DNA of 5,906 nucleotides, taken from positions 1 to 5,906 of the IMG/VR virus record IMGVR_UViG_2778261591_000026. One strand, 5' to 3'. Position numbers and translations under genes: made by a program. Each line of letters opens with the position of its first letter. Position 1 is the stretch's first letter. Shown piece after piece: positions 1 to 5,906 of the stretch. The stretch is from a virus. Taxonomy: Duplodnaviria; Heunggongvirae; Uroviricota; Caudoviricetes. The notes under the pieces were generated by a model. It saw nothing but the letters and a program-made list of their open reading frames with translations, had not been told where the DNA came from and did not search any database.

Positions 1-153
1 AGGGTTGATGTTTATCAGGGGCAAAATGGTCAATCAATCACTCTTGAATTACTGAATGCAAAGATTGGATTTGCAGCTTCAGGAAATGGCCCGCAGCAGC
101 AAAGTAGTAACCAGCAGAACACTCCTGTATACGACGATTCCATCCCATTCTGA
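1..153 (+). CDS. 3' end of a gene (5' truncated by window edge); C-terminus resembles single-stranded DNA-binding protein (SSB)
   Basis: Frame 1 is open from position 1 to TGA at 151-153. Translation ends ...GNGPQQQSSNQQNTPVYDDSIPF: a Gly/Gln/Pro-rich low-complexity tail ending in an acidic D-D-x-I-P-F tip, like the canonical SSB C-terminal tip DDDIPF. Not in the ORF track because it has no in-window Met start. Confidence 0.45.
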   Translation, partial: RVDVYQGQNGQSITLELLNAKIGFAASGNGPQQQSSNQQNTPVYDDSIPF

Positions 154-176
154 TTCAGAAAAATAAGGATTTAATC

Positions 177-473
177 ATGCCAGCGCCTCTGTATGGTGCG
201 GATGACCCGCGCCGCTGTTCCGGCAATTCCATATCGGAGGTGCTGGAAAATATCAAGAATAATCTCGACGCGTTTCTTGCTCTGCCACCAGAAACAAAAG
301 AAGAACGGAAGTACCGACGCGATATACAACTCGCAGAAAAACAGGAAAAAGACCGAATAAACGAAACATCAATCCGACCATTCCGCAAAGCCACATATAC
401 CCACTTCCCTGAATATATCGACCCGCGCCTGCGTAATTACCGCTCACGCTATGGCGCTATCAGTAATGACTGA
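177..473 (+). CDS. Hypothetical phage protein, 98 aa
   Basis: ORF track entry; ATG at 177 preceded by AAGGA at 165-169; same strand and tight spacing with neighbours. No recognised family. Confidence 0.55.
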   Translation: MPAPLYGADDPRRCSGNSISEVLENIKNNLDAFLALPPETKEERKYRRDIQLAEKQEKDRINETSIRPFRKATYTHFPEYIDPRLRNYRSRYGAISND

Positions 474-483
474 GGAATTTACC

Positions 484-774
484 ATGAAAACAATGAAGCT
501 AAACATCGACCTCGGAAAATACGTTATTACCGGAACCAAACACGACCTGATTCTTAGTGAAAGAGGAATTATCAAAGAAGGCGAGAATGCAGGGAAAGAA
601 ACACTAAGCCGTATCGGTTATTACAGCAAGTTTGAGCATCTGGTTAAAGAATTATGCAACCGTGAAATCATGTTATCTCAGGCGCAGACGCTACAGGATA
701 TTCAGCAACATATCGAGAATTTAGGTGTGTCACTTAGCATGGCTATTGACCAGTTCGTGGAGAGTAAATCATGA
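484..774 (+). CDS. Hypothetical phage protein, 96 aa (an in-frame longer form could start at 451)
   Basis: ORF track gives 451..774. ATG at 484 is preceded by GAGGA at 473-477 with 6-nt spacing and begins right after the upstream stop (471-473), so 484 is the preferred start. Stop TGA 772-774 overlaps the next ATG (ATGA). Confidence 0.6.
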
Positions 775-938
775 GAGGACTTGCATACAATCCCGGCATT
801 CTTCCAGCAGAAATGATTATTCGCCAACGCGTAAAGCCAATGCCATCGAGAGAGGAATTGCTTAAGAGAAATTCTTTTCCTTCAGTGAATCAAAACAAAT
901 ATCTGAATGCGATGTGGCGTAAAGGAGGCAAGCAGTGA
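771..938 (+). CDS. Small hypothetical protein, 55 aa ([55 protein letters not shown]), absent from the ORF track
   Basis: ATG at 771 overlaps the upstream stop (ATGA); its stop TGA 936-938 overlaps the GTG start at 935 (GTGA). It exactly fills the gap in an otherwise coupled operon. GGAGAG lies at 759-764. Confidence 0.4.
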
Positions 939-1393
939 GCGAAATTAACTATAAAGAACTGCGCGAGGCGGCGAAACAGGCAACGCAAGATGAATGGGTA
1001 GCATATATTTTGCCGGGCCATAACGGCATTTATCCTGCGCGCACGTCTGAGGGTAGGCATTGCGGATACTTTATTGACTGGCCTGGTACTGATGGACAGA
1101 GGAACGCTAGTGCCAATGCCCGTTATATCGCGGCTATCCCACCAAAAGTTGCGCTGGACCTCCTAGGCGAAATTAAGCGCCTGGAGGACAAAAATATTGA
1201 TGCCATGTGCCAAATTGCAGAGCTGGAGAGCAATCGCGCGGCGCTGGCGGCGGAGCATGGTATTCAGATTGCAATAAATGAACTGCTTGCTCTGGCCCCG
1301 CGTCTGGATAAACGAGCGGTGGATGCACTCTCTGTGGCTGTGGAGCACCTGTGTAAACTGATTAAGAAGGAGGCAGTCAGTGAGCAAAATTAA
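935..1393 (+). CDS. Ead/Ea22-like phage protein, 152 aa (paralog 1)
   Basis: GTG start at 935 with AAAGGAGG at 921-928. N-terminus [17 protein letters not shown]... resembles the N-terminal region I recall for lambda Ea22 and Ead-family proteins. Shares N-terminal and central motifs with the next ORF. Confidence 0.75.
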
Positions 1394-2054
1394 TTACCAG
1401 GCACTGCGTGAGGCGGCAGAGAAAGCAACGTGGGGAGACTGGGACTCATATAAACCACACCGTGGCGCACGTGGTTATGAGGTCCGACTAAGTAGTCAGG
1501 CCATTGCGCAACACGTCCTGAAAAACAACGCTGAATTTATTGCTGCCTTTAATCCAAAGATTGCTTTGGCACTACTGGATGAACGGGAAAGAAACCAGCA
1601 ATACATCAAACGCCGCGACCAGGAGAACGAGGATATTGCGCTAACGGTAGGGAAGCTGCGTGTTGAGCTGGAAGGCAAAGACAGCAAAATAGCCAATCTT
1701 ACCGCCGAACGCGATGCTCTTCGTGAAGGTGAGATGGGCGACGCTAGGCATAGCAACACACGGGCCGCAGCTGATATCTACTTCCAACTGGTCGAGGAGT
1801 GCGAAATTCCTGCTGGCCGTTCTCTGGTCGAGTACGTTGACGATATGCGCGAGAAGCTGGAAGCCGCAGAGAAGCGCATTGCTGAGCTGGAGTTGCGGGA
1901 GGTTGTGCTTCCGCAATGCTATAGCATGTTGCATCGCGTCGATTTTGACGAGCCTTACCACACTGAAATGGTTTACAGGCAGCATCAGGTTCTTGAGGCA
2001 CTGCACAACGCTGGAATAAACGTCACCGAAGCAGGTAAAGGAGAGGCATCATGA
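1380..2054 (+). CDS. Ead/Ea22-like phage protein, 224 aa (paralog 2), coiled-coil-rich middle and divergent C-terminal half
   Basis: GTG start at 1380 with AAGGAGG at 1366-1372. N-terminus [17 protein letters not shown]... and motif PKIALALLDERERNQQYIKRRDQENEDIALTVGKLRVELE resemble lambda Ea22 as I recall it. Stop TGA 2052-2054 overlaps next ATG 2051 (ATGA). Confidence 0.75.
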   Translation: MSKINYQALREAAEKATWGDWDSYKPHRGARGYEVRLSSQAIAQHVLKNNAEFIAAFNPKIALALLDERERNQQYIKRRDQENEDIALTVGKLRVELEGKDSKIANLTAERDALREGEMGDARHSNTRAAADIYFQLVEECEIPAGRSLVEYVDDMREKLEAAEKRIAELELREVVLPQCYSMLHRVDFDEPYHTEMVYRQHQVLEALHNAGINVTEAGKGEAS

Positions 2055-2578
2055 GCACTATCACAAGAGAATGGCTGCAGCAGACTATCAACGATTATGA
2101 AAGCGTTCGTGATGAGCTTCCTTTCGGGCTTGATGATTACCAGGGGAATATCCTGGCTGCCCTGCGTATCGCACTGGCATCGCTGGAAGCAGAGCCGGTG
2201 GCGTGGAAGGTAACATTCACGCAAATTGACCGTGAATATAACACGTTCACTGGTATGTATTCTGACAAAGCAGAAGTCGAACGGTGGGTGCGTCTGCATA
2301 AAGCATGTAATTTTCGGGCAGATATAACACCGCTTTATACCGCCAAGCCAGTGCCGGTAACTCCGGATGGTTGGATAAGCTGTAGTGAGCGAATGCCGGA
2401 AATTAGACAAACAGTTATTGGATGGAATGGATATGCAGTTAGACAATGCGTATATACAAGGAATGAATATGCCAAGACACAGAAAGGCAGAGAGCCAAGG
2501 TTTGAAACCTTAACTGGTATATGGCATGGAGTAACCCACTGGATGCCGCTACCAGAACCGCCGCAGGAGGTGAAGTGA
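2051..2578 (+). CDS. Phage protein with DUF551-like C-terminal region, 175 aa
   Basis: ATG 2051 preceded by GGAGAGG. C-terminal segment ...PDGWISCSERMPE...GW...THWMPLPEPP matches my recollection of the DUF551 signature common in lambdoid prophage accessory regions. Stop 2576-2578 overlaps next ATG 2578. Confidence 0.75.
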   Translation: MSTITREWLQQTINDYESVRDELPFGLDDYQGNILAALRIALASLEAEPVAWKVTFTQIDREYNTFTGMYSDKAEVERWVRLHKACNFRADITPLYTAKPVPVTPDGWISCSERMPEIRQTVIGWNGYAVRQCVYTRNEYAKTQKGREPRFETLTGIWHGVTHWMPLPEPPQEVK

Positions 2579-2856
2579 TGGACTCCTTCGCGAAATATAC
2601 GATTATTGACTGGATAGCCTTCCTTCAGGTTTTGCTCATCTGGTTTTATATGGCTTACAGGAGTGGACAGTGGATTGTCAGTGTAGCCTGTAGCAAGGGA
2701 TGGCGTTGGTGGAACCGGAAGAATAAAAAAGCACTGGCATTGGATTCGTTTTACGAAGCATTCAATCTTAACAGCCTTCAACCTGGTTCTGTCATTGTAG
2801 TCACCACTCAAAGCGGCATGACCATTCAGATTCATAAACCAAAAGAGGAAAAATGA
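2578..2856 (+). CDS. Small predicted membrane protein, 92 aa (the ORF track's 2521 start is an in-frame extension inside the upstream gene)
   Basis: ATG 2578 with GGAGG at 2566-2570 (7-nt spacing), coupled to the upstream stop. Translation has one strongly hydrophobic segment (IIDWIAFLQVLLIWFYMAY) followed by a basic patch (KGWRWWNRKNKK) and a roughly 45-aa tail. No recognised family. Confidence 0.55.
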   Translation: MDSFAKYTIIDWIAFLQVLLIWFYMAYRSGQWIVSVACSKGWRWWNRKNKKALALDSFYEAFNLNSLQPGSVIVVTTQSGMTIQIHKPKEEK

Positions 2857-2942
2857 TGTGGCCTATATGTGTTAATTGCGGACGGATGTGCCTATCTGGA
2901 TGGTGCCGAAAGTGCGACAAATGCACGAAGCAAAGACAATAA
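2853..2942 (+). CDS. Candidate Cys-rich micro-protein, 29 aa (MMWPICVNCGRMCLSGWCRKCDKCTKQRQ), possible zinc-ribbon-like peptide
   Basis: ATG 2853 overlaps the upstream stop 2854-2856 (ATGA); purine-rich AGAGGA at 2844-2849. Six Cys in 29 residues arranged CxxC-x3-C-x4-CxxCxxC. Too short for the ORF track; coding status unproven. Confidence 0.3.
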   Translation: MMWPICVNCGRMCLSGWCRKCDKCTKQRQ

Positions 2943-2976
2943 CAATCCTCGCACTCGCGGGGATTTCTTTTATCTG

Positions 2977-3002
2977 AACTCGCTACGGCGAGTTTTGTTT
3001 TA
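2977..3002 (+). terminator. Candidate hairpin plus U-rich tract (weak intrinsic terminator or RNA structural element)
   Basis: AACTCGC (2977-2983) pairs with GCGAGTT (2988-2994) around a 4-nt loop TACG, followed by TTGTTTTA. Lies in the 72-bp non-coding gap before the 55-aa ORF. Confidence 0.25.
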
Positions 3003-3014
3003 TGGAGATGATAA

Positions 3015-3182
3015 ATGCACTTCCGAGTCACAGGCGAATGGAATGGAGAGCCATTCAACAGAGTTATCGAAGCAGAGGACATCAATGACTGCTATAACCA
3101 CTGGATGATATGGGCGCAGATAGCAAATGCAGACATAACCAATATTCGAATTGAAGAACTGAAAGAACACCAAACCGCCTGA
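3015..3182 (+). CDS. Small hypothetical phage protein, 55 aa (MHFRVTGEWNGEPFNRVIEAEDINDCYNHWMIWAQIANADITNIRIEELKEHQTA); same position as the small ORF preceding xis in lambda
   Basis: ATG 3015 preceded by GGAGA at 3004-3008 (6-nt spacing); clean translation. Prefer this over the overlapping track ORF 2869..3108, which has no RBS and runs across the 2977-3002 hairpin. Confidence 0.55.
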   Translation: MHFRVTGEWNGEPFNRVIEAEDINDCYNHWMIWAQIANADITNIRIEELKEHQTA

Positions 3183-3196
3183 TGGCGGTTTTTTCT
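3173..3196 (+). terminator. Candidate rho-independent terminator directly after the 55-aa ORF
   Basis: AACCGCC (3173-3179) pairs with GGCGGTT (3184-3190), a 7-bp stem with 5 GC pairs and loop TGAT, followed by TTTTTCTT. The ORF stop codon sits in the loop. Confidence 0.4.
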
Positions 3197-3235
3197 TGCG
3201 AGTAATTGCGGAGACTTTGCGATGTACTTGACACT
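3196..3235 (+). promoter_or_regulatory. Probable cII-activated pI-type promoter for int (cII half-sites TTGC-N6-TTGC at 3196-3209), overlapping the xis start
   Basis: TTGC at 3196-3199 and 3206-3209 separated by 6 nt, the spacing of cII sites in lambda pRE/pI/paQ. Location at the 5' end of xis matches the known position of lambda pI. Confidence 0.5.
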
Positions 3236-3440
3236 TCAGGAGTGGAACGCACGCCAGCGACGTCCAAGAAGCCTTGAAACAGTTCGTCGATGGGTGCGCG
3301 AATGCAGGATATTCCCTCCTCCGGTTAAGGATGGAAGAGAGTATCTGTTCCACGAATCAGCGGTAAAGGTTGACTTAAATCGACCAGTAACAGGTAGCCT
3401 TTTGAAGAGGATCAGAAATGGGAAGAAGGCGAAGTCATGA
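3222..3440 (+). CDS. xis: Excisionase Xis, 72 aa, lambda type
   Basis: Translation MYLTLQEWNARQRRPRSLETVRRWVRECRIFPPPVKDGREYLFHESAVKVDLNRP... is recognisable as lambda Xis. Overlaps int by 23 nt as in lambda. Confidence 0.95.
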   Translation: MYLTLQEWNARQRRPRSLETVRRWVRECRIFPPPVKDGREYLFHESAVKVDLNRPVTGSLLKRIRNGKKAKS

Positions 3441-4488
3441 GCGCCGGGATTTACCCCCTAACCTTTATATAAGAAACAATGGATATTACTGCTACAGGGA
3501 CCCAAGGACGGGTAAAGAGTTTGGATTAGGCCGAGACAGGAGGATAGCAATCACTGAAGCAATACAGGCCAACATTGAGTTATTTTCAGGACACAAACAC
3601 AAGCCTCTGACAGCGAGAATCAACAGTGATAATTCTGTTACGTTACATTCATGGCTTGATCGCTACGAAAAAATACTCGCCAGCAGAGGAATCAAGCAGA
3701 AGACACTCATAAATTACATGAGCAAAATTAAAGCAATAAGGAGGGGTCTGCCTGATGCTCCAATTGAAGACATCACCACAAAAGAAATTGCGGCAATGCT
3801 CAATGGATACATAGACGAGGGCAAGGCGGCGTCAGCCAAGTTAATCAGATCAACACTGAGCGATGCATTCCGAGAGGCAATAGCTGAAGGCCATATAACA
3901 ACAAACCCGGTCGCTGCCACTCGCGCAGCAAAATCAGAGGTAAGGAGATCAAGACTTACGGCTGACGAATACCTGAAAATTTATCAAGCAGCAGAATCAT
4001 CACCATGTTGGCTCAGACTTGCAATGGAACTGGCTGTTGTTACCGGGCAGCGAGTTGGTGATTTATGCGAAATGAAGTGGTCTGATATCGTAGATGGATA
4101 TCTTTATGTCGAGCAAAGCAAAACAGGCGTAAAAATTGCCATCCCTACAACATTGCATGTTGATGCTCTCGGGATATCAATGAAGGAAACACTTGATAAA
4201 TGCAAAGAGATTCTTGGCGGAGAAACCATAATTGCATCTACTCGTCGTGAACCGCTTTCATCCGGAACAGTATCAAGGTATTTTATGCGCGCACGAAAAG
4301 CATCAGGTCTTTCCTTCGAAGGGGATCCGCCTACCTTTCACGAGTTGCGCAGTTTGTCTGCAAGACTCTATGAGAAGCAGATAAGCGATAAATTTGCTCA
4401 ACATCTTCTCGGGCATAAGTCGGACACCATGGCATCACAGTATCGTGATGACAGAGGCAGGGAGTGGGACAAAATTGAAATCAAATAA
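3418..4488 (+). CDS. int: Tyrosine site-specific integrase Int, 356 aa, lambda type
   Basis: Translation MGRRRSHERRDLPPNLYIRNNGYYCYRDPRTGKEFGLGRD... ending ...HLLGHKSDTMASQYRDDRGREWDKIEIK is recognisable as lambda Int. HxxR motif (HELR) present and the catalytic Tyr codon TAT is at 4441-4443 (residue 342). Confidence 0.97.
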   Translation: MGRRRSHERRDLPPNLYIRNNGYYCYRDPRTGKEFGLGRDRRIAITEAIQANIELFSGHKHKPLTARINSDNSVTLHSWLDRYEKILASRGIKQKTLINYMSKIKAIRRGLPDAPIEDITTKEIAAMLNGYIDEGKAASAKLIRSTLSDAFREAIAEGHITTNPVAATRAAKSEVRRSRLTADEYLKIYQAAESSPCWLRLAMELAVVTGQRVGDLCEMKWSDIVDGYLYVEQSKTGVKIAIPTTLHVDALGISMKETLDKCKEILGGETIIASTRREPLSSGTVSRYFMRARKASGLSFEGDPPTFHELRSLSARLYEKQISDKFAQHLLGHKSDTMASQYRDDRGREWDKIEIK

Positions 4489-4561
4489 TGATTTTATTTT
4501 GACTGATAGTGACCTGTTCGTTGCAACAAATTGATAAGCAATGCTTTTTTATAATGCCAAC
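4485..4561. other. attP P' arm: Int arm-type sites P'1-P'3 (about 4485-4513, reverse-complement orientation) and IHF H' site (about 4524-4536)
   Basis: Sequence caaataatgattttattttgactgatagtgacctgttcgttgcaacaaattgataagcaatgc is the reverse complement of the lambda P' arm as I recall it. It contains ATAGTGAC arm-type motifs and caacaaattgata, the reverse complement of an IHF-consensus-like TATCAATTTGTTG. Confidence 0.8.
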
Positions 4562-4576
4562 TTAGTATAAAAAAGC
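4562..4576. other. att core (common core O) of the prophage/host junction, attL (B-O-P') read on the opposite strand
   Basis: TTAGTATAAAAAAGC is the reverse complement of the lambda core GCTTTTTTATACTAA. Left flank (ccaac) continues as P' arm; right flank (aggcttcaacgg) continues as host attB arm. Confidence 0.9.
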
Positions 4577-4622
4577 AGGCTTCAACGGATTCATTTTTCT
4601 ATTTCATAGCCCGGAGCAACCT

Positions 4623-5906
4623 GTGAACACATTTTCAGTTTCCCGTCTGGCGCTGGCATTGGCTTTTGGCGTGACGCTGACCGCCTGTAGCTCAACCCCG
4701 CCCGATCAACGTCCTTCTGATCAAACCGCGCCTGGTACCTCTTCTCGCCCGATTCTGTCGGCAAAAGAAGCGCAGAATTTCGATGCTCAACACTATTTTG
4801 CATCCCTGACACCAGGTGCTGCAGCGTGGAATCCTTCCCCGATTACCCTGCCTGCGCAACCTGACTTTGTTGTCGGCCCGGCGGGCACTCAAGGTGTAAC
4901 GCATACCACGATTCAGGCGGCGGTAGATGCGGCAATTATCAAGCGTACCAACAAGCGCCAGTATATTGCCGTGATGCCTGGTGAGTATCAGGGAACGGTA
5001 TATGTCCCTGCCGCTCCGGGTGGAATTACTCTGTACGGTACAGGTGAAAAACCGATTGATGTGAAGATTGGGCTTTCCCTTGATGGTGGCATGAGCCCTG
5101 CCGACTGGCGTCACGACGTCAACCCGCGCGGCAAATATATGCCAGGTAAACCAGCGTGGTATATGTACGATAGCTGCCAGAGCAAACGCAGCGACAGTAT
5201 CGGTGTTCTCTGCTCTGCGGTCTTCTGGTCACAAAACAATGGCCTGCAACTGCAAAATCTGACCATCGAAAACACGCTGGGCGATAGCGTAGATGCAGGT
5301 AACCATCCGGCGGTGGCACTGCGTACTGATGGTGACCAGGTACAGATTAACAACGTTAACATTCTCGGTCGTCAGAACACCTTCTTTGTCACCAACAGCG
5401 GTGTGCAGAACCGTCTGGAAACGAATCGTCAGCCGCGTACGCTGGTGACCAACAGCTACATTGAAGGGGATGTGGATATCGTTTCTGGTCGCGGCGCAGT
5501 GGTGTTCGATAACACCGAATTCCGCGTGGTGAACTCACGTACTCAGCAAGAAGCGTATGTGTTTGCACCGGCTACGCTGTCCAACATTTACTACGGTTTC
5601 CTCGCCGTAAACAGCCGTTTCAATGCTTTCGGTGATGGTGTGGCGCAACTGGGCCGCTCGCTGGATGTTGATGCCAATACCAACGGTCAGGTGGTGATCC
5701 GTGATAGCGCCATCAACGAAGGTTTTAACACGGCTAAACCGTGGGCCGATGCGGTGATCTCTAATCGTCCGTTTGCGGGTAATACCGGCAGCGTAAATGA
5801 TAACGACGAAATACAGCGCAATCTGAATGACACTAACTACAACCGCATGTGGGAATACAATAACCGCGGCGTGGGTAGTAAAGTGGTTGCAGAGGCGAAG
5901 AAGTAA
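4623..5906 (+). CDS. ybhC: Host outer-membrane lipoprotein YbhC, 427 aa (pectinesterase-like, carbohydrate esterase family 8 fold)
   Basis: GTG start at 4623 with GGAG at 4612-4615. Signal peptide with lipobox L-T-A-C (Cys22). Sequence recognisable as E. coli YbhC, the gene next to attB-lambda. Stop TAA at 5904-5906 is the last codon in the window. Confidence 0.93.
   Translation: MNTFSVSRLALALAFGVTLTACSSTPPDQRPSDQTAPGTSSRPILSAKEAQNFDAQHYFASLTPGAAAWNPSPITLPAQPDFVVGPAGTQGVTHTTIQAAVDAAIIKRTNKRQYIAVMPGEYQGTVYVPAAPGGITLYGTGEKPIDVKIGLSLDGGMSPADWRHDVNPRGKYMPGKPAWYMYDSCQSKRSDSIGVLCSAVFWSQNNGLQLQNLTIENTLGDSVDAGNHPAVALRTDGDQVQINNVNILGRQNTFFVTNSGVQNRLETNRQPRTLVTNSYIEGDVDIVSGRGAVVFDNTEFRVVNSRTQQEAYVFAPATLSNIYYGFLAVNSRFNAFGDGVAQLGRSLDVDANTNGQVVIRDSAINEGFNTAKPWADAVISNRPFAGNTGSVNDNDEIQRNLNDTNYNRMWEYNNRGVGSKVVAEAKK

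Follow-up and report, generated by a model that had tools for sequence, protein, structure and literature searches.

The closest described counterpart of the locus analyzed here is the left attachment site (attL) of bacteriophage lambda, which lies between ybhC and bioA in lysogens of Escherichia coli K-12 and has the gene order xis-int-attL-ybhC. The locus, a prophage end next to ybhC, is contained in a window of 5,906 bp, which is the whole stretch of DNA analyzed (positions 1 to 5,906 of IMG/VR virus record IMGVR_UViG_2778261591_000026, Caudoviricetes). It shares with lambda attL this gene order, the attachment core, a P' arm and int 3' end that are 100% identical, an integrase (Int) that is 99% identical, and the 5' flank of ybhC. 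The prophage differs in that it is not lambda, and its genes upstream of xis resemble those of HK106, HK97, and HK629. In lambda, the terminator tI and the sib element lie beyond attP on the P side and are therefore placed at attR in the prophage, and pL transcripts leave induced, excision-defective prophages via attL toward gal (“escape synthesis”). The geometry of sib/tI retroregulation and gal escape synthesis is the same here, with prophage int cut from terminator and sib and transcripts leaving via attL, but ybhC as the first gene read through was not treated in the literature searched, and its case rests on general knowledge of lambda and a terminator scan. Prophages and islands that insert inside promoters, exchange the upstream control DNA, and regenerate part of the promoter through a duplicated core provide a further parallel; they differ in that the effect on expression is deduced here and in that what is restored in the best-known cases is a tRNA 3' end or the end of a coding sequence rather than a -10 element. 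At the present locus, the attachment core appears also to serve ybhC as its promoter -10 region, and a conserved block of host DNA directly upstream of the core is exchanged for phage DNA.

The region is, with near certainty, a B-O-P' attL junction of lambda type in the ybhB-ybhC interval that holds the classical lambda attB. Positions 4562-4576 carry TTAGTATAAAAAAGC, which corresponds to the lambda common core GCTTTTTTATACTAA in reverse complement, with 0 mismatches, and is the sole match in the window even when up to two mismatches are allowed (chance expectation, 0.01). When the window was aligned jointly with lambda attP and with the empty attB locus of strain HB-Coli0 (L001), positions 4401-4576, which comprise the P' arm and the 3' end of int, showed 100% identity to lambda attP, positions 4562-4640 were identical to the empty locus, and the switch from P' to B fell exactly at the core. 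The same site lies between ybhB and ybhC in K-12. Furthermore, matches of the phage genomes HK106, HK97, HK629, and JEP4 to the window end at 4576, and those of E. coli genomes with an empty site begin at 4558/4559; three further bases, CAA at 4558-4560, are common to P' and B'. In the lambda system, strand exchange takes place in the 7-bp overlap TTTATAC, located here at 4565-4571. The window reaches the left prophage end only, and attR lies outside it. The prophage is a mosaic lambdoid phage carrying the lambda int-xis-attP module, and the junction structure is that of the archetypal lambda attL, the most studied product of site-specific recombination and already known, with nothing new in the junction itself.

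Much of this had been anticipated by an initial annotation made from the sequence alone, which placed an exact junction at this core, with about 46 bp of native DNA before the ybhC start, the P' arm and int 3' end upstream, and an Int arm-type site overlapping the int stop codon. The core position, its P' flank, and the overlap of the stop codon by site P'3 agree with the present results, as do the identities of both genes (352 of 356 Int residues are identical to lambda Int, and the GTG at 4623 agrees with the RefSeq coding sequence of ybhC in the matching NEBExpress locus), and the alignment with an unoccupied attB locus, which the annotation had proposed as a check, places the switch where it was expected. 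Two statements need qualification. The junction is exact in position, but the 15 bp that are identical in phage and host set the limit to which the crossover can be located. The spacing between core and GTG is indeed 46 bp (4577-4622), which is true of unique host DNA, but functionally the sequence is native through the core to 4562.

Transcription of ybhC in E. coli MG1655 starts at 806546(-) (18 reads), giving a 5' untranslated region (UTR) of 42 nt, and a second ybhC transcription start site (TSS), 806823(-) (33 reads), lies within ybhB, 319 nt upstream (Kim et al. 2012, PMC3415461, Table S1). The sequence upstream of 806546(-) ends in ...GTTAGTATAAAAAAGCAGGCT, and this TSS can be transferred to the window (position 4581) because of the identity with the empty attB locus described above. 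The hexamer TAAAAA ends 7 nt, and TATAAA 9 nt, upstream of the transferred TSS; the only plausible -10 element for this start thus falls within the core and coincides with the strand-exchange overlap, placing the crossover inside the ybhC -10. The -10 region is invariant across genera in the aligned upstream regions. Both TSS and -10 survive integration because the TSS lies in retained host DNA and the -10 in a core that is identical in phage and host. The initial annotation had argued that the native promoter and any control elements more than about 46 bp upstream of the start codon were displaced. This applies to the DNA upstream of about -20 and not to the TSS and -10, which stay. Likewise, promoter and TSS are not confined together to the 46 bp of host DNA: the TSS lies inside it, the -10 lies in the core, and the DNA further upstream is displaced.

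The displaced DNA is highly conserved. Loci containing ybhC were collected from 80 species genomes, and upstream regions were aligned for 23 genera with unoccupied sites; conservation was expressed as the mean majority fraction per column, with positions given relative to the K-12 TSS. A stretch of ~38 bp directly upstream of the TSS, CTTCCCGTTTCGCTCAA(C/G)TTAGTATAAAAA(A/G)GCAGGC, is ~93% conserved in the 23 genera (L001 1486-1523; L005-L083), and positions -38 to -1 are almost invariant. The 19-bp block at its upstream end is conserved like the core and above the first ten ybhC codons (see table), and integration removes the most conserved noncoding block of the locus. A AACTTTTT motif around -53 to -45 is also frequent across genera. 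The conserved block belongs to ybhC and not to the end of ybhB, because its conservation persists with differing upstream neighbors: ybhB in Escherichia, Pseudocitrobacter, Franconibacter, and Buttiauxella, a divergent hutI in Salmonella diarizonae and Enterobacter, and an mtlR-like gene in Kluyvera. In the lysogen, -38 to -20 becomes TGCTTTTTTATAATGCCAAC, and 7 of the 19 block positions are kept. The B' position adjoining the core is C in most genera, as it is in lambda P', and the identity between attP and attB then extends over 19 bp rather than 15. Neither the empty attB locus nor the window as a whole gave a hit in Rfam, and the block is therefore not a known RNA family. An informal comparison by eye with consensus sites of sigma-E, sigma-32, sigma-S, sigma-54, PhoP, CpxR, PmrA, FadR, NagC, and MerR-type spacer operators revealed none that fitted in both sequence and spacing.

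A regulatory consequence of the junction is plausible. Integration regenerates the -10, start site, 5' UTR, and Shine-Dalgarno (SD) sequence of ybhC, and the DNA upstream of about -20 is swapped for the P' arm, with C', the H' site of integration host factor (IHF) centered near -50, the arm-type Int sites P'1 to P'3, and the end of int. The displaced host DNA, comprising the block CTTCCCGTTTCGCTCAA(G/C), the AACTTTTT motif, the ybhB-internal start, and read-through from bioA-ybhB, moves to attR, tens of kilobases away. Lysogens may consequently have lower and differently regulated basal ybhC transcription, and int-direction transcripts would read straight into ybhC because no terminator-like site separates the two genes and tI and sib lie past attP, on its opposite side. 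A real, mostly negative effect of integration on basal ybhC expression is somewhat better supported than not, its size and sign in a true lysogen being extrapolated.

Expression evidence bearing on this view comes from E. coli 83972 attB::lsr, in which a 12.5-kb cassette was recombineered “next to attB” and ybhC is the most strongly downregulated gene in lag and exponential phases and is also down in stationary phase (log2 fold changes of -3.4, -3.0, and -1.6, respectively) (PMC12263705). The lag- and exponential-phase values correspond to an 8- to 10-fold drop, and the primer sequences place the insertion between L001 1488 and 1489, which corresponds to -36/-35 relative to the TSS and leaves 77 bp up to the GTG. 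The strain is peroxide sensitive, like a ybhC deletion, and the authors read the ybhC drop as a trans effect of the inserted genes; a position effect is not discussed (PMC12263705). An effect in cis is at least as likely as one in trans and would be the simplest interpretation, subject to the confounding factors described below. The result implicates DNA upstream of -35, not the block: the AACTTTTT region, the ybhB-internal start, or read-through. The prophage junction removes this DNA plus the block.

Several points weigh against an effect of integration on ybhC. The TSS at 4581 comes from one dataset, with 18 reads in a noisy table, and a consensus scan of the native intergenic region found no sigma-70 promoter or -35 element, the candidates TTCCCG, CCTTCC, and TTTACC matching TTGACA at 3 to 4 of 6 positions at most (consensus promoter and terminator scans covered the empty site, the window junction, and lambda attP). 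Judged from its sequence, the missing consensus -35 suggests activator dependence or an unusual promoter; the AT-rich P' arm might also substitute adequately in a native promoter that has no recognizable -35. In strain 83972, the cassette carries lsr genes, including that of the repressor LsrR, which confounds the result; it could also interfere transcriptionally at the site, and its insertion left the conserved block almost intact. A literature search found no comparison of ybhC RNA between a lambda lysogen and its cured parent or a nonlysogen. Integration may accordingly be neutral for regulation, with P1 needing only the core-regenerated -10 and start, the P' arm serving as well as the native DNA, and ybhC being expressed alike in lysogens and nonlysogens; lambda attB would then be, in effect, the neutral intergenic site of the textbooks. 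The retention of TSS and -10 is in keeping with neutrality, as is the occupation of 35% of complete E. coli genomes at no obvious cost, and the effect in 83972 could come from lsr genes and LsrR in trans or from cassette interference. Nevertheless, neutrality is rather unlikely. The displaced positions -38 to -20 equal the core in conservation, and exceed the start of the ybhC coding sequence, in 23 genera whose upstream neighbors vary, which argues for a function of the block, and the downregulation in 83972 is strongest, in lag and exponential phases, in the very gene that adjoins the insertion, the signature of a cis effect.

Alternatively, ybhC might be driven mainly by prophage transcription, from low-level pI/int transcripts or, after induction, from pL, in which case its expression would be equal or higher in lysogens and would rise sharply on induction. 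The genes int and ybhC are co-oriented and 134 bp apart, and a simple scan found no terminator-like site between the int stop codon and ybhC, a weak negative given that the same scan misses tI in lambda itself. The only strong RNA hairpin between the two genes pairs GCUUUUUUAUAA of P' with the core and is without a U tract. Given that sib and tI belong to the P-arm side of attP and that escape synthesis proceeds via attL, pL read-through would reach ybhC before any other gene. However, pL is off in a repressed lysogen and pI needs CII, so read-through should be small, and no expression data for prophage-driven ybhC were found in the literature; control of this kind is improbable as the main influence on ybhC. 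A chance match or assembly chimera might be suspected from the fact that the whole 5.9-kb window is absent, at ≥80% coverage, from all complete RefSeq E. coli genomes. The lack of an intact match is explained by the mosaic early-left genes upstream of xis, not by the junction. Many independent complete genomes, including that of BL21-derived NEBExpress, share 401 bp across the junction at 100% identity. Of 5426 complete E. coli genomes, 1919 (35%) have the site occupied in this way, and 3489 have an empty attB. An artifact is thereby effectively refuted.

We tentatively propose that att-lambda is not neutral but forms the core of a ybhC promoter/operator that is deeply conserved (-38 to -1, ~93%, at least 23 genera), and that occupancy of the site rewires ybhC. 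If so, lambda-type lysogeny, at the frequency given above, and every engineered att-lambda insertion would rewire this gene, with a several-fold basal drop, loss of regulator input, IHF and Int on the promoter, and coupling of ybhC to prophage induction. The site is used as a neutral landing pad in lysogens, DE3 strains, CRIM/pOSIP integrants, and attB:: constructs, and if the cis effect is true, att-lambda occupancy would be a hidden variable of ybhC expression in strain comparisons. In published data on its deletion, ybhC is linked to peroxide tolerance, so a phenotype may exist. If the cis effect is true, the locus would also add to the cases in which phages have chosen conserved regulatory DNA for their attachment.

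Features of the prophage end, the junction, and the ybhC upstream region (window positions; negative positions are relative to the K-12 TSS)
Feature	Position	Strand	Basis or remark
xis (excisionase), 72 aa	3222-3440	+	Open reading frame (ORF); Pfam Exc, E=3.9e-41
int, lambda-type tyrosine integrase, 356 aa	3418-4488	+	ORF; transcribed toward ybhC
P'3 arm-type Int site (AAATCATTAT)	4485-4494	-	Motif match; overlaps int TAA 4486-4488
P'2 arm-type Int site (CAGTCAAAAT)	4496-4505	-	Motif match; lambda identity
P'1 arm-type Int site (AGGTCACTAT)	4506-4515	-	Motif match; lambda identity
IHF H' consensus (TATCAATTTGTTG fits WATCAANNNNTTR)	4524-4536	-	About -50 from ybhC TSS; identical to lambda
Inverted repeat GCTTTTTTATAA / TATAAAAAAGC (P' versus core)	4543-4576	+	RNA fold: AU-rich hairpin, no U tract after it
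C' core-type Int site (CAACTTAGT)	4558-4566	+	Read from sequence
att common core O, 15 bp (GCTTTTTTATACTAA)	4562-4576	-	Sequence and three-way alignment; lambda misc_recomb 27724-27738
Probable ybhC P1 -10, TATAAA (4566-4571) or TAAAAA (4568-4573)	4566-4573	+	Deduced from distance to TSS
B arm, native host DNA	4577-4622	+	Last 4 bp of promoter, then ybhC 5' UTR; SD GGAG 4613-4616
ybhC TSS (P1)	4581	+	Transferred from MG1655 806546(-); 5 bp outside core
ybhC, outer-membrane lipoprotein (pectinesterase-like, putative acyl-CoA thioesterase), 427 aa	4623-5906	+	GTG start
B' block CTTCCCGTTTCGCTCAA(C/G)	-38 to -20		Mean majority fraction 0.93
att core	-19 to -5		Mean majority fraction 0.94
Flanking intergenic DNA	Outside block		Mean majority fraction ~0.5
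First ten ybhC codons	Coding		Mean majority fraction 0.87

Int contains the Pfam domains Phage_integrase and the lambda Arm-DNA-binding domain (Arm-DNA-bind_1), in keeping with a heterobivalent tyrosine integrase, and YbhC contains Pectinesterase. The arm-type motif taken singly occurs at chance frequency in the window (67 found versus 64.6 expected), and the assignment of P'1 to P'3 therefore relies on identity to lambda and the lambda literature, not on motif matches alone; the names are those established in that literature. The segment 4524-4536 is presumed to be the H' site, putative as regards IHF binding, and 4558-4566 is likewise taken to be C'. In the RefSeq lambda genome (NC_001416), the Int site “int 4” is annotated at 27814-27854 (L004 515-555), inside the int coding region; the lambda P'1-P'3 motif matches lie at ~27785-27815, and the annotated feature looks shifted by ~40 bp.

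Two promoter candidates on the phage side were rejected. A perfect TATAAT at 4550-4555, directed toward ybhC, has -35 candidates at 13 bp (TTGATA) or 23 bp (TTGCAA) and, to judge from this spacing, is probably not an effective promoter; it belongs to the inverted repeat of P' and core. The int-internal ATGACA-16-CAAAAT, at 4448-4475, is a chance-level hit of the promoter scan.

On the host side, Cappable-seq data contain a weak plus-strand TSS at MG1655 U00096.2 806570 (relative score, 1.55) and another weak one at 806637. The start at 806570(+) lies 7 nt downstream of the core top-strand TATACT, its window equivalent being just left of 4562 in the empty site, and fits this TATACT as a -10, with transcription away from ybhC toward ybhB. 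In a lysogen, a divergent start of this type would read into the P' arm and int, antisense. Just past the ybhB stop codon, at L001 1419-1446, there is a 10-bp GC-rich hairpin, GCCAGATGGC-gcaat-GCCATCTGGT, with no U tract; to judge from its sequence, bioA-ybhB and ybhB-internal transcripts might or might not end there instead of reaching ybhC.

The early-left region upstream of xis (window positions 1-3221) is a mosaic that matches HK106, HK97, and HK629 in pieces only and, according to the annotation of the matching records, encodes Abc2 anti-RecBCD, Ea22-like, DUF551, and DUF4752/ASCH-like proteins. A defective lambda-B prophage of 12.1 kb occupies attB in BL21 and REL606, and the ybhC-attL segment of BL21 reportedly exceeds that of BL21(DE3) by 23 bp (PMC4395058).

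In Salmonella enterica subsp. arizonae (L013), an integrase 33% identical to lambda Int is located ~137 bp upstream of ybhC, with the same core and insertion point and another P'-like arm (…CTGCTTTTTTATTTTATCGACT|TAGTATAAAAAAGC); therefore, at least two integrase lineages use the conserved site. Variant lambda-type P' arms are present in Escherichia albertii (L011) and Escherichia sp. (L010). A 632-bp contig labeled Streptosporangium vulgare (L082) is 99% identical to the 5' end of E. coli ybhC, including the attB core, and is almost certainly E. coli contamination of an actinomycete assembly.

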